Positions 4,011 to 63,123 of a stretch of 64,000 bases of DNA are shown here, one piece after another. The DNA is from a virus (taxonomy: Duplodnaviria; Caudoviricetes): IMG/VR virus record IMGVR_UViG_3300031760_000024, positions 22,827-86,826 of that record, one strand, 5' to 3'. Both the position numbers and the translations under genes were made by a program. Numbering within the stretch: position 1 is the first letter of the stretch; each line of letters opens with the position of its first letter. Under the pieces are notes generated by a model, which was given only the letters and a program-made list of their open reading frames with translations, was not told where the DNA came from and did not search any database.

Positions 4011-4034
4011 AAACTACAGATTGGAGATTTGATT

Positions 4035-5303
4035 ATGAAAGTTGTCAAAAGAGATGGCCGGAAAGTCAACTTCAATAAGGAGAATATTAAAAATGCAATT
4101 ATAAAAGCCTTTGAAAGCGTTGACGGTGTTGTAACACCATATGCGGAAAACAAGGCTAAAGAGATTGCCACACATATTGAATCCCTTAATAGAAGATTGA
4201 CAGTCGAAGAAATACAAGACGAGATTGAAAATAAACTCATGGCTTCCAATAGGAAGGATGTAGCCAAGAGCTACATATTATATAGGGATGAACGAACTAG
4301 AGAACGAGAAAGAAAAAGCACACTTATTAAAAATGTAGGTGAGAAATTAAGAGCAGATAACGTACAGAATCAAAATGCTAATGTTGATGAACATTCATTT
4401 GGCGGCAGAAAAGGCGAAGCAGATAGTGAATTAATGAAAACATATGCCCTTAACTATTGTATGTCAGAAATGTCAAGAAACAACCATCTGAATAATGAGA
4501 TTTACATACACGATCTCGATTCGTATGCGGTAGGGATGCATAACTGTTTGACACTGCCGTTTGACAAATTATTAGCAACAGGATTCAACACTAGGCAGAC
4601 TGATGTAAGACCAGCTAATTCTGTTAATACAGCATTTCAGTTGGTGGCTGTGTTATTTCAATTACAGTCATTACAACAGTTTGGAGGTTGTTCCGCAAGT
4701 CATTTGGACTGGACAATGGTTCCGTATGTACGAAAGAGTTTTACAAAACACTTAGGAGACGGACTCGCATATGTAGAAAAGAAAAGCGAATATAAAGTTC
4801 AGCGATTTCATAAATGGCTAGAACATGATACAGAAAATCATCCTGATGGTACTATTCATTTTGATGATGAAGCGTTTAAAAATCTACATCCAGACGCATG
4901 GGAATATGCGATGGATTTAACAGAGCGTGAAACACAGCAAGCCGTTGAGGGTATGTACCATAACCTTAACACACTGCAAAGCCGTTCGGGAAACCAGTTA
5001 CCTTTTACGTCAATCAACTACGGTACATGTACACTACCGGAAGGGCGCATGGTAACTAAAGCGTTACTCGAAGGTTCGATAAAAGGGGTTGGGAAGTTCC
5101 ATAAGACGCCTATTTTCCCATGTGGAATATTTCAGTGTATGAAAGGCGTTAATCGTCATCCTGGCGATCCGAATTATGACTTATTTCAGTTAGCGCTTCG
5201 GTCTACATCGCAGAGACTTTATCCGAATTATGCTAATTGTGATTGGAGCGGCAACGAAGGATACGATAGGGATGATCCGAAAACATATTTTAGCACCATG
5301 GGT
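4035..5303 (+). CDS. nrdD: Anaerobic (class III) ribonucleotide reductase, exon 1
   Basis: ATP cone MKVVKRDGRK, HIHDLD-like IYIHDLD, HNCL, QQFGG, GNQLPFTSINYG, PIFP, YPNY; exon ends at ...TMG. Confidence 0.95.
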
Positions 5304-6073
5304 AAGCGTAAACTTATAGCTCATGTAAAACCTTTTGAACCGTTACTCGCGGGTGTGGCTTAGGCTGCTAACGGTTAGGACTCTCTGAGTTGAGACCGTG
5401 GGAAGATATACATTAGTCGGTCATGAAAGGATGGTTCATGGTCGAAACAAAATATAAAAATATCTTCGTTAATGAAGAAGATTTGGAAATATATAAGAGA
5501 ACAAAAACTGGTAGGATTATTAAATTAGGTAAATGGGTGGACTCACTTGGATATTATATGATTGCTTTTAAAACTGATGAAAAGAAATATTGGAAAAGAG
5601 TTCACAGATTAATAGCAGAAACACTAATTCCTAATCCAAATAATTATAAGCAAGTAAACCATAAAGATGGTTGCAAATTAAATAATAGTTTAAATAATTT
5701 AGAATGGTGTGATAATCAATACAACACACAAGAAGCTTATAATAATGGCTTATATAAATCCAAAAAAGAATGCCCTATAAGGGCAATAAATAAAGAAACT
5801 GGTCAAATATTAGAATTTAAAAGTATAAGAAATTGTGGAGAACAGCTCCACCTAAATAGGAAAACAATTACTTCAATCCTTAAAGGAGAGAAGAAAACAA
5901 ATAATTATGAATACAATTTTGAATATATTTGACCGAATAATGTATATAACCTGTATCGACTATCCCTGATGAATGTAAGGGAGTAGGGTTGGATATGAGT
6001 ACCAACTCGAAGCGGAAGGCTATCGAAAGATAGAAGATATAGTCAGTGCCTCTGGCGACAGAGGGTAAACATG
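5304..6073 (+). ncRNA. Group I intron in nrdD (770 nt) carrying an HNH endonuclease
   Basis: Exon 1 ends in U and the intron in G; splicing restores TMG|CRTAN. P1 = CAUGGGU/GCUCAUG (5319-5325). P7 = GACUAU with AAGAUAUAGUC (~6034-6044). A long stem (5407-5424 with 5930-5947) encloses the ORF. Confidence 0.92.
5438..5932 (+). CDS. Intron-encoded HNH homing endonuclease with C-terminal NUMOD1-like domain
   Basis: RVHRLIAETLIPNP..QVNHKDGCKLNNSLNNLEW; AAAGGA SD before ATG 5438 (alternative start at 5423). Confidence 0.9.
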   Translation: MVETKYKNIFVNEEDLEIYKRTKTGRIIKLGKWVDSLGYYMIAFKTDEKKYWKRVHRLIAETLIPNPNNYKQVNHKDGCKLNNSLNNLEWCDNQYNTQEAYNNGLYKSKKECPIRAINKETGQILEFKSIRNCGEQLHLNRKTITSILKGEKKTNNYEYNFEYI

Positions 6074-7078
6074 TGTAGAACAGCTAACGGCTTTGATATT
6101 AACGGCTTCGGGCAGTTAAAAGATGGGCGTGGCAACATTTGCCCAGTAACAATTATTATGCCAACATTGGCGATGGAGGCTATAAAACAACAGGAATATA
6201 ATCCCGCAAATGAACAAGCAGATGAAATTGCTAAAAAATTATATGTTAAACGATTCATGTTATTGTTAAACAAAAAAATCCACGAAGCCAAGGATATGCT
6301 TATTGAACGATTTGAATGGATTTGTTCACAGAGTCCTGCTTCAGCAAAGTTTATGTATGAGAATGGTACTATGGAAGGATATGTACCAGAGGAAGGCATT
6401 CGCTCTGCTCTGAAACATGGGACATTAGCAATAGGGCAGATTGGTTTAGCGGAGACATTACAGATACTTATTGGTTGCGATCACACAACGGAAGAAGGTA
6501 TGAAAGTTGCTAAACAAATCGAACAATTATTTAAGGACAAATGTTCTGAATTCAAGGAAGAATACAAACTTAACTTCGGCGTATACTACACTCCTGCCGA
6601 GAATCTGTGTTATACGGCGATGAAGAAATTTCAACAGGCTTACGGTTTAATTCCGAAGATTTCTGACAAATCGTTCCTCACAAACTCGATCCATGTGCCC
6701 GTCTGGTATGAATGTGATCCATTCACAAAGATTGACATTGAATCGCAACTCACTGGATATTCGTCAGCAGGATGTATCGTCTATGTGGAGTTTGACGCTA
6801 GCGCAAAACAGAATCTTGAAGCATTAGAGACGGTTGTTAATTATGCAATGGACAAAGACATACCTTATTTTGCCGTAAATGTACCCTGTGATACCTGTTT
6901 GGATTGTGGGTATACAGATGATCTTAATGATGTTTGCCCAGAATGTGGTGGTCATCATATTCAAAGATTACGTAGAGTCACCGGCTATTTAACTGGCGAT
7001 TACAAAACAGCATTTAATCTTGGTAAACAACAGGAAACAGAGATGCGATTTAAACATAGTAAGTTAATTAATAATTAA
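6074..7078 (+). CDS. nrdD: Anaerobic ribonucleotide reductase, exon 2 (spliced product ~757 aa)
   Basis: CRT, GRGNICPVTI, TPAENL, Zn-site CLDC/CPEC, glycyl-radical loop RRVTGYL. Confidence 0.95.
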   Translation, partial: CRTANGFDINGFGQLKDGRGNICPVTIIMPTLAMEAIKQQEYNPANEQADEIAKKLYVKRFMLLLNKKIHEAKDMLIERFEWICSQSPASAKFMYENGTMEGYVPEEGIRSALKHGTLAIGQIGLAETLQILIGCDHTTEEGMKVAKQIEQLFKDKCSEFKEEYKLNFGVYYTPAENLCYTAMKKFQQAYGLIPKISDKSFLTNSIHVPVWYECDPFTKIDIESQLTGYSSAGCIVYVEFDASAKQNLEALETVVNYAMDKDIPYFAVNVPCDTCLDCGYTDDLNDVCPECGGHHIQRLRRVTGYLTGDYKTAFNLGKQQETEMRFKHSKLINN

Positions 7079-7090
7079 CATAATAATCTA

Positions 7091-7187
7091 GGGATGACAC
7101 TCCCCCGGCTCACTGCCCTTATTTGGCAGGACGTCGGTGACAACAATTGGGCGAGGAGTGCGGTACGGTGGAGAGGGGTAATCGTAC
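7091..7187 (+). other. GC-rich nested stem-loop element (candidate structured RNA)
   Basis: About 60% GC in an AT-rich intergenic region. Nested pairs CACTCC/GGAGTG, CCGGC/GTCGG, CTGCC/GGCAG, followed by GTACG/CGTAC. Confidence 0.45.
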
Positions 7188-7309
7188 AATTAATATCTGC
7201 TATATTTAGTTTTTGCAGAATATTATTGAAAACCACGCACATCGGCAAAAAGCCATACAAATTGACAATGTGCGTACCAAACATTTTGTAAATAGAGAGG
7301 AAAACATAA

Positions 7310-7483
7310 ATGACAATGAGTGAGATACAAGAGGAAATCGCAAAGCTTGAAGAAGAGCGATTTCAACTAGATTTAAAGGATGAATGGGAGTGGGAGGATG
7401 AACGCCGAGCTATCTACATTAGTCGGAAAATCCGACAATACTACACCATCATTAATGGCGGTGGTTACTATGGACGGCATTAG
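7310..7483 (+). CDS. 57-aa hypothetical protein (MTMSEIQEEIAKLEEERF...), not in the ORF track
   Basis: GAGAGG RBS; overlaps the next start; typical phage small protein. Confidence 0.65.
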   Translation: MTMSEIQEEIAKLEEERFQLDLKDEWEWEDERRAIYISRKIRQYYTIINGGGYYGRH

Positions 7484-7643
7484 TTGGTTAGTGTTGGTTA
7501 TCATGGTTGTCATCATGATAGGTTCAGTACCACTGATCGAGTGGATATCTTTCAAGTGGTATCAGTATAAGTACGGTGATGAAGACGCACGATTTTTGTG
7601 GATGAAAAACAAAAAGGACAAAAAGGAGAAGAAACATGAGTGA
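7470..7643 (+). CDS. Small single-pass membrane protein
   Basis: MDGISWLVLVIMVVIMIGSVPLIEW hydrophobic segment and basic tail; overlaps the next gene. Confidence 0.65.
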   Translation: MDGISWLVLVIMVVIMIGSVPLIEWISFKWYQYKYGDEDARFLWMKNKKDKKEKKHE

Positions 7644-8403: not shown

Positions 8404-9274
8404 TAAGCGTATTTTTTACTGTTGGTTTGGTGGCGGAGAAATGTCCGACCTTAATAAGAAGTGTATGGAGTCATGGAAGAAGTGGTGTCCTGACTACGAG
8501 ATCGTAGAGATCAATGAATCCAACTTTGACTATCACATCACACCGTATGCAGAAGAAGCGTACGAGCATGGTAACTGGTCATATGTCAGCAATGCTGCAA
8601 GACTTGAGTTTCTGAAACATAATAGTGGCATTTACCTTGACACTGATATCCAGTTGGTAAAGTCGCTTGATAGCTTGCTTGAGTATGACGATGGTTTCAT
8701 TACAGAGTTTGAGTCAGGTCAGCCTGACTCTGGTATTCTTGGATGTTCAAGATGGCCGAAGTTTTACGATGAAGTATACAACCGTCTCGTGCCCGGAACA
8801 GTACTGCACAAGGAGTTTATTCAAGTAATGTATAGGGATTACAACATTCATGGTGAGAAAATCCTTAAGAACGACGATGGATTTGTTGTACTTGGCGAAG
8901 AGTTTATACCTACTGTACGTACAGGATTGTTTACACCGAACACTATTGCCATCCATCACTTCGAGAACACATGGGTAAAACAGTGGCGTAATATTACTGA
9001 TGGTTTCTACCCGTTCCCTCGGATCAAGGCTTATCTCGGTAACAAAGTGCTGCATGAGGATAAAGACCCAGAGGTTATCTTTATTTCCAAGAACCTGAAA
9101 AAGAAGTGGAGTGATGGTGACATGCTTGGTAAAATTAACTACTTTTTTAACCCGAAGGTTGTGCAGTTATCATGTAAAGATTTCGATGCACAGCGAATCG
9201 GATATGACAAGACGAAAGAAAAGCGCATGACTATCACACCGGGCGGTTTAATGGTTTGGTGGATTGCGGATTAG
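8396..9274 (+). CDS. DXD glycosyltransferase (GT32 / capsular-polysaccharide-synthesis type)
   Basis: IFYCWFGG, CMESWKKWCPDYEI, SNAARL, GIYLDTD. Confidence 0.85.
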   Translation: MIDKRIFYCWFGGGEMSDLNKKCMESWKKWCPDYEIVEINESNFDYHITPYAEEAYEHGNWSYVSNAARLEFLKHNSGIYLDTDIQLVKSLDSLLEYDDGFITEFESGQPDSGILGCSRWPKFYDEVYNRLVPGTVLHKEFIQVMYRDYNIHGEKILKNDDGFVVLGEEFIPTVRTGLFTPNTIAIHHFENTWVKQWRNITDGFYPFPRIKAYLGNKVLHEDKDPEVIFISKNLKKKWSDGDMLGKINYFFNPKVVQLSCKDFDAQRIGYDKTKEKRMTITPGGLMVWWIAD

Positions 9275-9295
9275 AAATATTAGGAGGAAAAGGAA

Positions 9296-9808
9296 ATGTC
9301 AGAGACAAGATATGAGAGTGTACCAGTTGGTGATAATGTTTGTAAACAAGTACTTAAACAGAATGAGTGTTCCGTTCTTAAAGTAAAGCGAGTGAGTGAC
9401 ACGGCTATTCTCCCAACACGAGGATCGGAGAAAGCGGCAGGGATTGATTTGTATGCAGATATACATGAGCCGTTTATTACCATTGCTCCTCAACAGACAA
9501 AGGTGATTAGTAGTGGAATAGCATGTGAGTTTCCAGAAGGATACTGGGGAGCGTTAATTCCACGTAGTTCTACTGGCATTAAGAAAGGTTTGTCATTGGC
9601 GAATAATTTAGGGTGTATAGATGAGGACTTTAGAGGCCCTATTATGATGGCATTCTATAATCACACCGATCATAGTGTTATTATTGAGCGTGGTGAGAAA
9701 GTAGCACAACTAATATTGTTACCATATTATTTGTACGACGTTGTAGAAGTCGATGAATTATCAGAAACTAAACGTGGAGAAGGCGGCATTGGTAGCACTG
9801 GTAAATAA
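9296..9808 (+). CDS. dut: Trimeric dUTPase
   Basis: AAGIDL, PRSSTG, GCIDEDFRG, AQLI, RGEGGIGSTG motifs 1-5. Confidence 0.95.
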   Translation: MSETRYESVPVGDNVCKQVLKQNECSVLKVKRVSDTAILPTRGSEKAAGIDLYADIHEPFITIAPQQTKVISSGIACEFPEGYWGALIPRSSTGIKKGLSLANNLGCIDEDFRGPIMMAFYNHTDHSVIIERGEKVAQLILLPYYLYDVVEVDELSETKRGEGGIGSTGK

Positions 9809-16985: not shown

Positions 16986-19100
16986 TTATTCAGAAACATC
17001 GATCTTCCGTTTCACAAGTACATTGATTTCATCACCCGTGTTAAAAGTTTCGACAGATTCACCCTCTGCGATGTTCTCCGCTGAAAGGGAACATACAACA
17101 GGCATCATGTAGAATTTGATCCGATTATCCACATTCGGCGGGAACCACGGACGGATATTTGTGATCTTGTTTCTGTCCCCATCCATCTGGAAAAGCTGAT
17201 TCGTTACACGATATTTTTCACCGAACATAATAACTTCATTCGCACGAACAAACCCATTTGTTTTCAGATTCAGATTTGTCCCGCCCTTCTTAACGATTGC
17301 GAAATTGTTATCCAGATCGACAGCATTCCATGACATTTCTTTGTTATTGATAATAACATTTGTGAAATATGGCGGATAACAAGCGACCATTGCTCCATGA
17401 CATTCGTCAAACTGAATATTATCCATGTTGATGACCAGTTTGTTTCTGTGTTCGATTTCGTTGTTTCCCTTCAAAACATAGTCGATGAAATTGAAACTTT
17501 CGATCACTGGTGAACCGTCAACAATAACCGGAATTGTTCCTGTGGTCTGTGTTCCGTCCGACAGATAATGCTTTACTTTTTCGGTGAACCTGAATTCATT
17601 TCCATATAACGGCGCGGTCATCGTTGTGGGATCAAATTCTTTTCCGTCAACAAAGAACAATGACCATAATGCTACACAACACCCGTCACCGGCTCCAACA
17701 TATCCCGAATGGTCAATGATGTTATGGATGAAATTCGTGTTGCCTTGCATCAGATTGTTTCCGTCTTTGTCCTGTATATATTCTGCATACCACACATCCG
17801 TTGTAACATAATCAACGCCGCCGATTGTCGATTCTGCGTGTACTTTTGTAAATGTATGCGTCAAATATCCACCTTCGTCCATATAGGAACGCACGGCGAA
17901 CTTTTTATCAGTTATCTTGTAAACTACTATTTTATGATCTGTGTTGTTGCTTTCCTTAAAACTTGCTAATGCTCCGTATAATTCGGGATATGAAACATAG
18001 ATGAAATGGTCACGATTTATTGAAAAGTTTGCGACTACATATTCCGTATTACTTGAAGTGTTCTTATATGTGACAAAGCTAACACTTCCGACGCCAGCTT
18101 CCAGACAGGAAAGGAAAACACCATTTTTGTCGGTCTTTGTCAATACAGAAACAATCTGATTTCCGTATAGATACGCGCTAAAAGTTGCCCCCGGTGGTAA
18201 AATTATCGGCTCTGTAATGTGATATGAACTGGATGAAACAACGGTGAGGGAATCTTTTTCAATATATCCTTCTGTATAGCTCAATTCATCCGTGATTTCT
18301 GTCTTTTTCAAAATGACATTATCTTGCACATTATATGCTGACATATCCGCTGTGGCAACGATGGCAGATCCTAAATGCTGAACATAAACAATCAATGTCT
18401 TGAATCCGGAATAATCATTTATGTCGATTATTTTTTCGGATACTCCATCGTATGACTGAAATTCACTGATAGTCGTTCCGACTGCAACATCTGCTACGGC
18501 TTTCGTTGTGTATGCTATACGAAAACGGTTGTTATTATTTGCTACAATATAAGCCCTTGCCCCGTGAATGTCGCTGATGTCAAACAGGGCAAGCCTTGAA
18601 TTTGTATTACTTGTGACAGCAGAACCTGTCATTTCTGCATTGTCAAGATAGACAACTGTCTGTTTATCCCCTATGTTTAATGCGGTTTGTTTCACTGCGT
18701 CTATATTTGTCTGTAATTTTGTATCACACCCCTGTACCATCGCCGCCGGACTACTATACTCTACCCCATCAAATCCTGTTTTGAGCGCTTTTACTTGGCT
18801 GTCGATCGCACGTACTGCATCTCCTGCAGTGTTGTATGTATTCCCCGAAGAGTCTACACGAATGTTGGTTAGTTCGGCATCACCAGTTGTAGAACCCGGT
18901 GTAAGTGCCGTGAAACTATCTATCTGACCCTGTAAAGAATCAAGGTTGTTTTTCAGATCGGTCTGGTTGGAGAGTGTACCTTTAACCTGACCCCACTGTA
19001 CTTTGTCCATGTTATTGATTGCGGTGGCAACACTACCGAGTGCCTGTGCCACGCTTTTACCAGTGTCGTCTAACATGACTGGTTTCGTTACATTACTCAT
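16986..19100 (-). CDS. Tail fibre / spike protein
   Basis: WGQVKGTLSNQTDL and TTGDAELTNIRVDSSGNTYNTAGDAVRA fibre motifs followed by a large beta-rich body. Confidence 0.75.
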   Translation of the reverse strand: MSNVTKPVMLDDTGKSVAQALGSVATAINNMDKVQWGQVKGTLSNQTDLKNNLDSLQGQIDSFTALTPGSTTGDAELTNIRVDSSGNTYNTAGDAVRAIDSQVKALKTGFDGVEYSSPAAMVQGCDTKLQTNIDAVKQTALNIGDKQTVVYLDNAEMTGSAVTSNTNSRLALFDISDIHGARAYIVANNNNRFRIAYTTKAVADVAVGTTISEFQSYDGVSEKIIDINDYSGFKTLIVYVQHLGSAIVATADMSAYNVQDNVILKKTEITDELSYTEGYIEKDSLTVVSSSSYHITEPIILPPGATFSAYLYGNQIVSVLTKTDKNGVFLSCLEAGVGSVSFVTYKNTSSNTEYVVANFSINRDHFIYVSYPELYGALASFKESNNTDHKIVVYKITDKKFAVRSYMDEGGYLTHTFTKVHAESTIGGVDYVTTDVWYAEYIQDKDGNNLMQGNTNFIHNIIDHSGYVGAGDGCCVALWSLFFVDGKEFDPTTMTAPLYGNEFRFTEKVKHYLSDGTQTTGTIPVIVDGSPVIESFNFIDYVLKGNNEIEHRNKLVINMDNIQFDECHGAMVACYPPYFTNVIINNKEMSWNAVDLDNNFAIVKKGGTNLNLKTNGFVRANEVIMFGEKYRVTNQLFQMDGDRNKITNIRPWFPPNVDNRIKFYMMPVVCSLSAENIAEGESVETFNTGDEINVLVKRKIDVSE

Positions 19101-54275: not shown

Positions 54276-54370
54276 CCTCCGAAAAATAATCAATATAAAA
54301 AAGACAGTAATCTTCGCATTCGGAGTACGAAGAAAGGGGAGCTACCCCATGTCCTGTCTTTGTTATCAAA
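54276..54370 (-). ncRNA. Structured leader RNA, copy A (three-way junction plus SD pseudoknot)
   Basis: P1 AAAGACAG/CUGUCUUU; P2 GGGG-UAGCU-CCCC; P3 8 bp with loop CUCCGAA complementary to UUCGGAG over the SD. Confidence 0.7.
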
Positions 54371-54615
54371 TCAATATAAATAATTTTTCTGTACCTCTCG
54401 GCACAGTCCAGATCATATCAACACCATATCTATTGACTTAGGTGGTTCCCATTACCTCACTTGAGGACTTGATCGTTGAACCTTCCCTTTCGGGCTTGGC
54501 TGCTGATTGTCTCTATCTATTAGATTGTTACACTTCGGTACTAATAGCCTAACAAGAGTTCCCAGCAATTAGAGAACTTTCGACATAAGGTTTCCCTTAT
54601 GAAGCGCATACATTT

Positions 54616-55159
54616 ACGAACTTTGCGACCTTTCAACTCCCCACATCTCACATTTCTTTCCATTATAAACCCATTGGAATTTATGACCACATGGAAGAAT
54701 AGACCATGTCGGGAAATCATGATTAATTGCATCAGCCGTAGAAACTACGAGCCAACGATTCCAAATACCATGTTCATCTGCGATATCCAGATATAGCCCA
54801 GTCGGGAAGACCGAATCGGTCGGTTCCTCAAACAATTTATGGTAATATGGAACGTTACACTGATAATTTGGCTTAAACATAATACGGCTATCAACCTCGT
54901 CCTTATTTAACGTACGGTAACTATTCAGAATATACTTCAGTTCTACTGGCGTTTTTGTTTTAGACTGTTCTGGGTTCAATCCTTTGTTTTTGTTCGGTTC
55001 ATCGTCGTGGGTGTAGTCGTACAAATACCCAACACAACTCGCCGGATCATCATACCATGTAGCCTCAATTATATCCTGTGCCTCATAACTATGCCGTTGA
55101 CCAGTGGTGTTAATACCACTACAAATACCGTGTGCTCTCTTAAATGCGTTGATATCCAT
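54616..55159 (-). CDS. Head-tail joining protein, exon 1 (spliced product ~399 aa)
   Basis: Ends WGVERSQSS at the intron; PTGLYLDI, NRWLVV, WSILPC. Confidence 0.75.
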
Positions 55160-60025: not shown

Positions 60026-61309
60026 TCAATTATTAATTTTAAATTCTTCTTTAATTCGCCAATAATATCCCCGATATTTTCTGTTATTATTCATCGCATT
60101 AATTAATTGGTGATGTACATCTGTTGTATTAAAATAACGAGCAACACTTTTCCCACTAGGAAATTCCTTAACTACATTCATATTATCATCGATCATTTCA
60201 TACGTTTTATCTATTCTGTTTAATTTTCTCACTAACGGTTGATTGTATGGTGTAATTAAATATCCTTTACAACTACCACCTCTTTTTAGCACCTTTGCTA
60301 TTTCACCGCTTGGACATTTTAAAAAATCTTCCGCTTCTTTATAACAAGAGCATCGAGTAATATACCAACCTTGTAAGTCATAAATTTTGACTGCTCGTAA
60401 CTGTCTAGACATTGGATATTTATTAAAATCATCACCTTCATAGCGTAATACATATCTCTTATACTTTAATTTCTTACCAATAACATTATCTCTAAGTTCT
60501 TCAGTAGATATACCAATATAATGACATGCGTCAATAAAATCATCATATGTATTTAATAATTCACCAAAGGCATTATAAACACATATACGTCGACCATCCC
60601 ACCAAGAACTTCTATCCAATTTACGTTGTTTCTTAATTTCTTTTGGCATTGCTTTGCTTACATAAGGTTTTTTAATACGTTCTTTTTTTGGATGTTCTTT
60701 TTCCCATTTTTCCCAATATATACGAGATTTTTCATATCGATTTTTGATACCAGTTTCATAATCTGGAGCTATTGGATCATCATCTTTATATGCCCAAACA
60801 AAACCAGCAGCAGTATAATAATAATGGTGACATACAGCCCATATCGTTGCATTGTCAATATTGTTGTCTTTTGCAGCATTCATTATTGAATCGTATTCTT
60901 GTATTGGGTTTAAATCTTTATCATACTTAATCACATGACGGCCACTGACATGTTTATTATCTCCGCCAGCTTCTGTATTATATCCATTACACAACGGATC
61001 ATATATACAAGTATGATATTTAGATATATATTGTTTTTCTAATTCATTTAATTGTTTAATTAATTCATCTTTATTTACAGAAGTTATTTTTTCAATTTCT
61101 TCTATATGAAATTGATCTCTGCCATAACATCTCATTGCATTGTATAATATTGATTTTCCTTTATAATCAGAAATACATGCTGTTTTATGACCATGCCAAC
61201 GTTCTTTAATAGTACTATATGTTTGACCAATATATAGCTTATCATTTACATTATTCCAGATCTTATAAATAAAACCTTCCCACATGCCAGTTTCTTTGTT
61301 ATATGCCAT
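60026..61309 (-). CDS. Free-standing GIY-YIG homing endonuclease with NUMOD1-like repeats
   Basis: GFIYKIWNNVNDKLYIGQT, ERWHGH, ELEKQYI, GYN; repeated (K/V)YD..G....Y.S..A modules; start at 61309 or 61315. Confidence 0.88.
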   Translation of the reverse strand: MAYNKETGMWEGFIYKIWNNVNDKLYIGQTYSTIKERWHGHKTACISDYKGKSILYNAMRCYGRDQFHIEEIEKITSVNKDELIKQLNELEKQYISKYHTCIYDPLCNGYNTEAGGDNKHVSGRHVIKYDKDLNPIQEYDSIMNAAKDNNIDNATIWAVCHHYYYTAAGFVWAYKDDDPIAPDYETGIKNRYEKSRIYWEKWEKEHPKKERIKKPYVSKAMPKEIKKQRKLDRSSWWDGRRICVYNAFGELLNTYDDFIDACHYIGISTEELRDNVIGKKLKYKRYVLRYEGDDFNKYPMSRQLRAVKIYDLQGWYITRCSCYKEAEDFLKCPSGEIAKVLKRGGSCKGYLITPYNQPLVRKLNRIDKTYEMIDDNMNVVKEFPSGKSVARYFNTTDVHHQLINAMNNNRKYRGYYWRIKEEFKINN

Positions 61310-61316
61310 AATCATT

Positions 61317-61420
61317 CCTCGTTTCTCCTCGTTCTAAATAATAAAAGACAAGGACGCGGCGAACGAGGTTACCGCATTATTATGGGTAGCTACTCCCATA
61401 ACTCCTTGTCTTGTTATTAA
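61317..61420 (-). ncRNA. Structured leader RNA, copy B (three-way junction plus SD pseudoknot)
   Basis: P1 AAGACAAGGA/UCCUUGUCUU; P2 UUAUGGG-AGUAGCUA-CCCAUAA; P3 GCGG/CCGC with loop CCUCGUUC complementary to GAACGAGG at the SD. Confidence 0.7.
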
Positions 61421-61458
61421 CAAAATAAAATAGGAGACAGACATACTATCTGTCTCCC
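61421..61458 (-). terminator. Intrinsic terminator after the portal gene
   Basis: GGAGACAGA/TCTGTCTCC stem followed by TATTTTATTTT on the - strand. Confidence 0.75.
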
Positions 61459-61521
61459 AACCGTAATCAGTACGGTTATCTTCTAATTTGATGTTAACGC
61501 TCCCAGTGTAGCCGGGAATCG

Positions 61522-63123
61522 CTATTTATTTCTTGAACGATCACCTGATGGAGATAATTCCGTATCATCTTTTTGTGGCGCACCACCAGTATTATCTCCA
61601 TTGTTGCTCGTTGTATACGAACTCTGTAATGGATATTTCATCATATCCTGTAATTTCAGTACATTAGTTTCAAAAGCCAACTGTGCTAATGTTTGTCGTT
61701 CAGTAAATCCTAATAAAGTACCATAAGCCAATCTATAAGAATAACTATATTGATTTGCCTCCAATAATGATTTTCTATATTCGTCTTTTGTATGAATTGT
61801 AACTGGCATTAAATCTACATTACACGGATTAGAAACATGTAATATTAATTGTAAATTTGTCCAAGCTGTTATTTGTGGTAATACGCTATTCAGTACATAT
61901 GACGACTCTGAACGTAATGCCGCATTAATTAATGCAGTATTATTGACCATCTTGTTTCCGTTGAGTAACGCTCCAATACCACCTGACGAACCAAGAATCT
62001 GTTGCTGTGAATTTTCTACTCTATTTACATCATCAGAAACATTGTCAGAAAAATCAATAGTCTTTAATTCTTTTCCGGGAATAACAGCAGTAGACACATT
62101 TGCAGGGATTGCCTTATCTGCTGCAATCTCAAAATAATCTATTGCCAAGTCAGGAGTTACTTCAAATTCATCTGGATTTCTTGCACCACTTAACGTTGGA
62201 AGTGGAAGATATATCATTCTATAAAACGATAATTGATCCGCAGAACTCTGTGTATCAGACAAGTCATTTAAATTTGCCAACGGTATTAAATCATGTAATA
62301 ACGGTGGTATAATTGCATTTATCATATCTGTATGAAATTTTAAAACACAACTATACTCAGCTGGTACGTGAATATATTTAATGCCAGTACGTTCATATTC
62401 TTTCCACATTGATGTTAATGGTTCGCCAAGCCATTCAATTAATTCTTGTCTTTGTACTGATTTCCATCGGCTCATATCTAACGCCATGCCATAACATGTT
62501 CCACCATATACCGTATATACCGAATCTATTATTGCTTCATTTGGATCAATCCTCCAAAACATACTGCCAGTATCATCTTTAAAAAATAGATTAAACGAAA
62601 TATCATCAATCCACATATTAACTAATGGAGCATTCATGTTATTTTGCAAACTTAATACATCCATAAAGTTAATTGTTGCATCAAATTGTTTTAACATATT
62701 TTCCGGTGAATTATCTTTAACCAAAGAATAATCTGGCGTTATCTTTCTACAATCTAGACAATACATTCCAGCAATCGTATATATCATTTTGTTATATATT
62801 GGTGATCTATAAAATAAATATCTACTTGCATTAATTAGATTTTTAGAGTTCGCATAAAGATTTCCGGTTAAATATCCGCGAACAGTATCTCTATTGATAG
62901 AAGATAAAGTGATTAACTCCGCATTTTTAGTTACATCACGAATTGTTCTCATCACCTTTTCTTCTTTAGCATTAGCATATCTTTTTACTTGTCGTTCTTC
63001 CTCTAATTTAAATTGTTCTCTTATAGCGGCTACCGATTGATTTGGTCTACCAACTTGCTCTTTGATGGTAGCCACTTTTTTGTTCGAGACGCTTGTTGCG
63101 TCAACACCATTTTTCTGCGCCAT
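61522..63123 (-). CDS. Portal protein
   Basis: 533-aa ORF between terminase and protease; SRYLFYRSPIY..I; C-terminal PLQSSYT..GGAP. Confidence 0.8.
   Translation of the reverse strand: MAQKNGVDATSVSNKKVATIKEQVGRPNQSVAAIREQFKLEEERQVKRYANAKEEKVMRTIRDVTKNAELITLSSINRDTVRGYLTGNLYANSKNLINASRYLFYRSPIYNKMIYTIAGMYCLDCRKITPDYSLVKDNSPENMLKQFDATINFMDVLSLQNNMNAPLVNMWIDDISFNLFFKDDTGSMFWRIDPNEAIIDSVYTVYGGTCYGMALDMSRWKSVQRQELIEWLGEPLTSMWKEYERTGIKYIHVPAEYSCVLKFHTDMINAIIPPLLHDLIPLANLNDLSDTQSSADQLSFYRMIYLPLPTLSGARNPDEFEVTPDLAIDYFEIAADKAIPANVSTAVIPGKELKTIDFSDNVSDDVNRVENSQQQILGSSGGIGALLNGNKMVNNTALINAALRSESSYVLNSVLPQITAWTNLQLILHVSNPCNVDLMPVTIHTKDEYRKSLLEANQYSYSYRLAYGTLLGFTERQTLAQLAFETNVLKLQDMMKYPLQSSYTTSNNGDNTGGAPQKDDTELSPSGDRSRNK

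Follow-up and report, generated by a model that had tools for sequence, protein, structure and literature searches.

A three-armed leader RNA with tandem antisense targets precedes a phage GIY-YIG homing-endonuclease gene and most likely limits its translation

Introduction

Phages have to hold down the expression of homing endonucleases, which are selfish nucleases, and, to our knowledge, only simple hairpins that mask the ribosome-binding site (RBS) have so far been described for these enzymes. Sequestration of the RBS is documented for the phage homing-endonuclease genes I-TevI (T4) and mobE (Aeh1) (PMC3014915). The icd/ant operon is the target of the c4 RNA of P1/P7, and the two are transcribed together, from one operon (PMC8198154). 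The CI region of phage P4 belongs to the same Rfam family, C4 (RF01695), which it matched with 74.9 bits as our positive control; the targets of this family are catalogued as c4-a1b1. The CI RNA of P4 and its target sites are described in terms of seqA, seqB and seqC.

Two further systems bear on the present locus. The int-alpA motif (RF02996), which reportedly stems from the 2017 survey by Weinberg and colleagues, is an orphan candidate RNA, typed as an sRNA in Rfam, that has a U-run after its outer helix P1; we found no functional study of int-alpA in the literature searched, and nothing there on the apex hairpin sequence described below. The dimerization initiation site (DIS) of HIV-1 is a kissing-loop site in which a 6-nt palindrome lies in an apical loop, preceded by unpaired purines.

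Here we analyse a 64,000-nucleotide stretch of phage DNA (the window), which is part of an 86.8-kb IMG/VR virus record. A sequence-only reading had proposed that a conserved leader RNA, with a pseudoknot that captures the Shine-Dalgarno (SD) sequence, occurs twice in the window: as copy A inside an intron and as copy B before a GIY-YIG gene.

Results

Copy B is a three-way junction

The segments of copy B that had been quoted were all present on the minus strand, base for base, and so were helices P1, P2 and P3 (Table 1). In an 81-nt core, the three-way junction (61343-61412, minus strand) was both the minimum free energy and the centroid structure given by RNAfold. The core reached −30.9 kcal/mol, as compared with −14.5 ± 2.6 kcal/mol for shuffled sequences (z −6.3), and 0 of 200 shuffles were as stable. 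P1 can be extended through its A-rich flank to 61418, and P3 to 61377/61354 by U.G and A-U pairs; all 10 pairs of P1 were kept in three sequences, copy B and its close relatives L131 and L140. We conclude that the leader before the GIY-YIG gene is a real three-armed RNA fold. When a longer stretch was folded, RNAfold favoured a competing pairing of the 3' strand of P1 with the first target site, T1, leaving the second, T2, 61% unpaired.

Table 1. Positions of the leader elements and of the gene that follows copy B
Feature	Position in window	Strand	Description
Copy A (A-type relative)	54295..54368	-	inside group I intron before LAGLIDADG gene; L2 UAGCU
Intrinsic-terminator-like hairpin with U tail	61431..61459	-	13 pairs, then TTTTATTTTG
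P1	61412-61403 with 61354-61345	-	AAGACAAGGA with UCCUUGUCUU, 10 bp
P2 hairpin	61401-61380	-	7 bp, UUAUGGG / loop AGUAGCUA / CCCAUAA
P2 apex	within 61380..61401	-	UGGGAGUAGCUACCCA, 16-mer common to about 45 other leaders
L2 (P2 loop)	61394-61387	-	AGUAGCUA, contains palindrome UAGCUA
P3 hairpin	61375-61372 with 61359-61356; whole 61354..61377	-	GCGG with CCGC
L3 (P3 loop)	61371-61360	-	UAACCUCGUUCG, 12 nt
L3 antisense core	61368-61361	-	CCUCGUUC
U-rich tail after P1 3' strand	61344-61336	-	UUAUUAUUU
T1	61334-61327	-	GAACGAGG, exact 8-nt complement of L3 core
T2	61323-61317	-	AACGAGG, 7-nt complement of L3; SD region of GIY-YIG gene
Conserved start codon	61309-61307	-	AUG, from comparison with L131 and L140
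GIY-YIG + NUMOD1 homing-endonuclease gene	60026..61315	-	ORF behind copy B

The terminator-like hairpin lies directly upstream of the leader, between it and a portal-like gene, and in L131 its place is taken by another hairpin, which ends in a U8 tail. Directly after P1 comes UUUUAUUAUUU. A scan restricted to sigma-70-type promoters on the minus strand (61200-61600) found none.

Two other candidate assignments were rejected. A 21-codon ORF within the junction (AUG 61399-61397) was discarded as a leader peptide, its stop being shifted by a 1-nt indel in L140 and the ORF being missing from the other members of the family described below. The Rfam freshwater-2 model scored 19.7 bits on copy B against a threshold of 49.9; this score comes from the P3 stem and the SD, has no counterpart in copy A, and was attributed to chance. 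A scan of viral contigs with the exact motif ATAACAA..GGA..GTAGCT gave only chance matches besides the window's own record. A collection of phage GenBank records contained nothing matching either the copy B locus or a GC-rich member of the family.

The leader and the nuclease gene form one cassette

The GIY-YIG protein has about 70 relatives. In the contigs that were fetched, several of them from human gut samples, the gene follows the terminase and portal-size genes, as far as the locus includes these, and is followed in turn by YonD_N and YonB genes, a neighbourhood that indicates an SPbeta-like structural module. In agreement with its description as conserved, the leader is also found ahead of the gene in two relatives from metagenomes: L131, whose protein is 93% identical, and L140 (71%). 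In both, the first AUG of the ORF (61315-61313) reads AUA or AAA, which leaves the second AUG as the conserved start. Identity to the L140 leader is about 94%, as against 77.7% for leader and coding sequence together, and homology to L140 begins at the 5' edge of the leader. This pattern indicates that leader and nuclease gene are one cassette, moving together, of which the leader, judged by these identities, is the more constrained part. L140 carries a G-C to A-U double compensatory change in P3; position 50:71 is a U-A pair in L140 and unpaired in L131. The copy B subtype offers just three near-identical sequences, so that covariation within it is minimal (shuffles 169/500).

The junction is missing from more distant orthologues (about 50% identity). 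Three of these (L133, L136 and L142), GIY-YIG genes at the same genomic position in other phages, have a plain hairpin formed by the SD and an anti-SD strand, arriving at the same outcome by a different route; in two others (L141 and L143) a terminator is present and the SD is open. Upstream of the SD-masking hairpin, L133 (2880-2960) and L136 (1880-1960) have a second conserved hairpin (AGAG..AUGGGA..UCCCAU..CUCU), the AUGGGA/UCCCAU stem of which resembles copy B P2 and may be a remnant or a precursor of the junction.

Other features of the cassette and its surroundings were recorded. The GIY-YIG gene of L140 (1327-2622) is apparently broken into a 37-codon ORF from the proper start and a separately called 373-aa ORF; its leader is intact nevertheless, and an RVT_1 gene lies upstream. 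For the orthologue in L141 (1501-2772), translation yields the database protein only if TAG is decoded as Gln, which points to a phage with a recoded stop codon. In L123, a relative with a 72% identical portal, no nuclease cassette follows the portal gene; at 4612-5200 there are instead about 600 nt, structured-looking, with no long ORF on the plus strand and a 102-aa ORF on the minus strand (4809-5117). The window itself contains a third homing-endonuclease gene, an HNH_3 gene on the plus strand (5423-5932), which is flanked by 4029-5363 and 6071-7078 and splits an anaerobic ribonucleotide-reductase-like gene. No leader of the copy B family lies ahead of it; the 60-nt gap before it is structured-looking and might be an intron start. 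A search of species genomes with the YonD-like protein, aimed at assigning a host, gave no match, and a pattern combining the P2 apex with GTCTTTT had two matches in species genomes.

The P3 loop faces two target sites

The P3 loop had been said to be complementary to two SD-like copies, and both matches hold, over 8 nt at T1 and 7 nt at T2. T1, SD-like as it is, lies at least 13 nt from either AUG. It is the nearer and stronger partner: the predicted duplex energies are −14.1 kcal/mol for L3:T1 and −12.3 kcal/mol for L3:T2, compared with −12.5 kcal/mol for the 16S anti-SD with the SD. In L131 and L140, an A-to-G change in T1 retains a U.G pair with L3. A single L3 is unable to cover T1 and T2 at once in the same molecule, and pairing with T1 alone would leave the real RBS free.

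Copy A represents a separate subtype

Copy A adopts the same fold as copy B (RNAfold, z −4.4), and its L3, CUCCGAA, is matched to the SD UUCGGAG. It lies just 3' of the group I intron core (RF00028, 69 bits, 54389-54628) and before the LAGLIDADG ORF; being outside the RF00028 match, the leader is not part of the intron core, in line with the earlier proposal. The two copies have their topology, the GUAGCU loop, the ends of P1 and the logic of the P3 loop in common: P3 and target differ in sequence and still match each other, again as proposed. The palindrome of copy A, AGCU, is shorter than the UAGCUA of copy B.

Covariance model R1, for which copy A and the intron relatives L126 and L127 were used, found copy A and its relatives at 95-105 bits and gave copy B 14.6 bits, through P1 and the A/U flanks only. 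This was no better than ordinary terminators in the window, and nearly the same score was obtained on the reverse strand. By this test copies A and B are not one sequence family; that R1 fails to detect copy B indicates that they are different subtypes. The superfamily model R2, described below, did align copy B.

At least 16 viral contigs contain A-type leaders (17 pattern matches, with L156 among them int-alpA-like), and all of the ORFs examined behind them are of the HTH-LAGLIDADG type. Their P3 loops follow the SD together with its 5' flank: CCUCUAU/AUAGAGG, CCCUAA/UUAGGG, CUCCGAAA/UUUCGGAG, CCUUAAA/UUUAAGG and CCUUCAA/UUGAAGG.

Copy B belongs to a wider family of leaders

Viral contigs were scanned with the 16-nt apex of copy B P2 alone. 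The scan matched 103 stretches; the matches listed comprised 68 distinct contexts, 63 after flank filtering, and on reading these about 45 of the 63 were leaders with the same P1-P2-P3 plan. In this plan the complement of the P3 loop lies 8-16 nt past P1, and a second copy of that site is usually present. P1, P3, the targets and the start-codon spacing were none of them contained in the query. As read from the same list, the spacing from the end of T2 to the start codon was 2-7 nt in each of the 13 two-target members that were examined. Tandem targets are a family trait, and many are not SD-like: GUAUUGG, CAUUAGC, CUUAGC, GUCAGU, GAAGCGA, ACUGCGA and GGGAUAG each occur twice in their leaders. 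With L3 taken as a fixed 15-nt window after P2, a member's own L3 had a complement of at least 7 nt downstream in 26 of 49 cases (53%), compared with 5.2% for the regions of other members. This comparison shows that complementarity between L3 and its target is selected across the family.

The genes behind these leaders encode HNH_3+NUMOD4, GIY-YIG+NUMOD1, DUF4379+CapR, DUF7487, DUF1376 and DnaG-type zinc-ribbon (primase) proteins, with the GC-rich members preceding the replication genes (DUF1376, primase). Several AT-rich members begin just after a TAnnTTTG box, which we take to be the Bacteroidota −7 promoter motif; an element placed directly behind it would form the 5' end of the mRNA.

When parsed one by one, 21 of 22 members had all three helices, the exception being L270, in which no P3 was found. 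Model R2, built from 22 apex-found members, aligned copy B end to end with 37.3 bits, a score that is partly circular as the model includes the 16-mer used to gather the members. A further R2 match in the window (18225-18298) lies within a 704-aa tail-fibre ORF and was dismissed as chance. In a covariance-model alignment of 50 superfamily members, P2 was well supported and P1 and P3 weakly (45% and 54% paired), because the helix registers differ among members.

Two variations on the theme were observed. Six sequences (L181, L187, L204, L206, L207 and L218) have no P3 hairpin and carry a single-stranded UCUCUACAC between P2 and P1, complementary to two downstream GUGUAGA(GA) sites, with an additional anti-SD stretch after P1. 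In L189 (9353-9368, minus strand), the same 16-nt apex caps a long hairpin directly upstream of an Rfam freshwater-1 RNA (9263-9325), inside a tRNA array with a GOLLD RNA at 7072-7506; similar sequences occur in L226, L237, L251, L263 and L269. Hairpins of this type indicate that the apex is a module reused outside the leader family.

The P2 loop is palindromic, with interchangeable palindromes

Some members of the family also match int-alpA. L177 scored 37.1 bits with RF02996, above the gathering threshold of 35.8, and L161 24.6 bits, both being GC-rich. Copy B had no match to RF02996 at E<=10 (cmscan of 61200-61560 and 61280-61440), and none of copy B, the A-type and the AT-rich members reached any Rfam family.

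A second scan, in which the int-alpA junction strands were fixed and P2 was left free, yielded 113 distinct members. Their P2 loops fell into the classes AAGUCAUGAG, AGUAGCUA, ACUAAUUAC, AGUAAUUA and CUUGAUCA, with several GAUC loops. A hexamer palindrome, of five different sequences, was present in 68 of 95 loops, as compared with 6.1% of shuffled loops; the remainder had a tetramer palindrome (25/95) or none (2/95). The P3-loop segments had no hexamer palindrome in 94 of 95 cases. As five palindromes interchange and shuffled loops are rarely palindromic, L2 is selected to pair with itself and not to show one particular sequence. Such a loop bears the signature of a kissing-loop dimerization site and suggests that the leaders dimerize.

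L179 has two leaders on opposite strands, at 1499 (plus) and 1935 (minus), with different L2 palindromes (UAGCUA and UAAUUA), and L190 and L193 have the same arrangement; with their near-identical elements, the three are probably the same or closely related phages.

Beyond what had been proposed, then, copy B is part of a large family that overlaps int-alpA, its GUAGCU loop is a selected palindrome, and tandem targets, often not SD-like, are found family-wide.

Discussion

We favour, with a probability of roughly 60%, the reading that copy B serves as the 5' leader in a mobile cassette of leader and GIY-YIG nuclease gene and acts there as a built-in antisense regulator. The leader most likely limits how much nuclease is translated, and translational repression by antisense pairing, analogous to that by the P1 c4 and P4 CI RNAs, is its most likely function. 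The three-way junction would present two loops, L2 and L3, of which L3 would pair with one or both of the tandem downstream sites. On T2 it would cover the SD region, bar the 30S subunit and keep nuclease synthesis low, while T1 could serve as a second clamp or as a competing decoy (or switch partner). The L2 palindrome would let two leader molecules kiss, perhaps bringing a second L3 so that both sites are covered. Masking of the RBS by L3 is supported by the predicted L3:T2 duplex, which is as stable as anti-SD:SD, by the position of T2 next to the start codon, by the simple SD-masking hairpins of the orthologues, and by the precedent of I-TevI and mobE (PMC3014915). The arrival of a second L3 in trans is plausible in view of the palindromic L2 and the U-run after P1.

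A different division of labour, which we regard as doubtful even though it is the alternative that survives best, would have the junction become a separate small RNA, by termination at the U-rich run or by processing, that acts in trans on read-through mRNAs as c4 and CI do. L2-L2 kissing would nucleate the interaction and L3 would then cover T1 and T2, blocking translation and possibly causing premature termination. The CI RNA of P4 is likewise a three-way junction with an antisense loop in its second hairpin, and the CI region scores well with C4, but copy B has no C4 match at E<=10 and the junction layouts differ. The c4 target icd/ant shares an operon with c4 (PMC8198154), as L3 and its sites share a transcript; both copy B targets, however, lie downstream and do not flank the RNA. 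A U-run follows P1 in copy B, as in int-alpA with its sRNA typing, but the terminator scan does not call P1 and the U-run, there is no CCA-like tail for RNase P, and the apparent Bacteroidota-phage members have no U-run after P1. Two targets for a single L3 would make more sense if additional L3 copies existed, and the GC-rich members stand before DUF1376 and primase genes as the CI RNA stands before the P4 replication operon.

Antisense repression in cis can also be elaborated into a more speculative scheme, to which we give rather little weight, in which the leader is a self-dimerizing dose sensor. L3 would be parked on T1 as a decoy; abundant transcripts would kiss via L2 and place the partner's L3 onto T2. 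If this were so, the more transcripts or genome copies there were, the more fully translation of the nuclease, and elsewhere of replication genes, would be shut off, and different L2 palindromes would provide orthogonal channels within one phage.

That the L3:T1 pseudoknot is instead the stable state, keeping L3 off the RBS, is unlikely. The fold would then be a cap at the 5' end that stabilizes the mRNA by shielding it from 5'-to-3' decay, or else a structure that provides standby binding or activation. Members whose targets are not SD-like weigh against this, as their T2 matches L3 no worse than T1 does and directly adjoins the start codon, which is hard to explain if only T1 counts; the use of simple SD-masking hairpins by orthologous genes argues in the same direction. 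What speaks for it is that T1 is nearer to L3 and pairs more strongly, that many GC-rich members have T1 as the better complement and a weak T2, and that the apparent Bacteroidota-phage members start right after the TAnnTTTG box, at what would be the very 5' end of the mRNA.

It is very improbable that the element acts mainly as a branched intrinsic terminator, or as an insulator, separating the portal gene from the nuclease cassette, with an incidental SD match. With model R1, copy B scores solely on P1 and the adjoining A/U flanks, about as high as ordinary terminators do, and the tail after P1 is U-rich, but a regular terminator is already present 20 nt upstream, loop and target covary family-wide with non-SD sequences included, and selection of a palindromic L2 has no role in a terminator. 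Least credible of all is a riboswitch or protein-binding element that senses its ligand via the junction or L2: canonical members do keep the junction strands CUAG, GAAAAG and CCUG, yet these strands are missing from copy B and the A-type leaders, and the occurrence of five L2 palindromes, with two classes in one phage (L179, L190, L193), argues against one sequence-specific partner.

A leader far more elaborate than simple RBS-masking hairpins, combining a three-way junction with an antisense loop, tandem targets and a palindromic loop, accompanies nuclease genes from at least three catalytic families that are unrelated to each other, and phage replication genes as well, in viral contigs that range from AT-rich to GC-rich. 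Under the favoured reading, antisense repression by L3, the orphan Rfam motif int-alpA would gain a concrete, testable mechanism, and the family would offer a natural set of orthogonal loop/target pairs.

Among the described systems, I-TevI and mobE are close, in that an upstream anti-SD pairs with the RBS of a selfish nuclease gene and so restricts how far read-through transcripts are translated. In copy B, by contrast, the anti-SD lies in the loop of a separate junction arm and its pairing is long-range, of the pseudoknot kind; the SD is not in the stem of a local hairpin, such as is seen in L133, L136 and L142. Copy B differs further in its tandem targets and dimerization-type loop, and no internal late promoter was found there by the sigma-70-type scan. 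The likeness to the HIV-1 DIS lies in the apical loop, where unpaired purines come before a 6-nt palindrome, and in the way different palindromes replace each other among relatives, whereas copy B sits in the mRNA leader of a bacterial virus and its dimer is a prediction.

The c4 and CI RNAs resemble copy B in being small three-way junctions whose second hairpin loop is the antisense element, in having target sites on the same transcript, as L3 has T1 and T2, and in silencing genes that must stay off, which is akin to the role proposed here. C4 RNAs, however, have no J1/2 or J2/3 strands and a UUCG-type P2 loop that is not a palindrome; their targets flank the RNA (a1b1/a2b2), whereas those of copy B are both downstream; and they are matured by RNase P with a CCA-like tail, of which there is none after copy B P1. 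With junction layout, target placement and model scores all differing, the relation is one of analogy and not of membership.

The likeness to int-alpA goes further. Both are three-way junctions in which P1 encloses two hairpins; in both the P3 loop is complementary to sequence past P1 and the U-run, the Rfam consensus pairing CCuU with AgGG; the P2 apex of the members that reach or approach the Rfam score (L177, L161) is that of copy B; the P2 loop is self-complementary in both, as UAGCUA within AGUAGCUA in copy B; and the context is phage. Copy B departs from it in its junction strands (G / UAAU / G instead of CUAG / CGAAAAG / CCUG), in its longer, AT-rich P1 and P2, and in its position before a homing-endonuclease gene of an SPbeta-like (YonD/YonB) phage, not before integrase, alpA or replication genes. 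We conclude that copy B is a divergent subtype of a catalogued, functionally unstudied RNA family that overlaps int-alpA.
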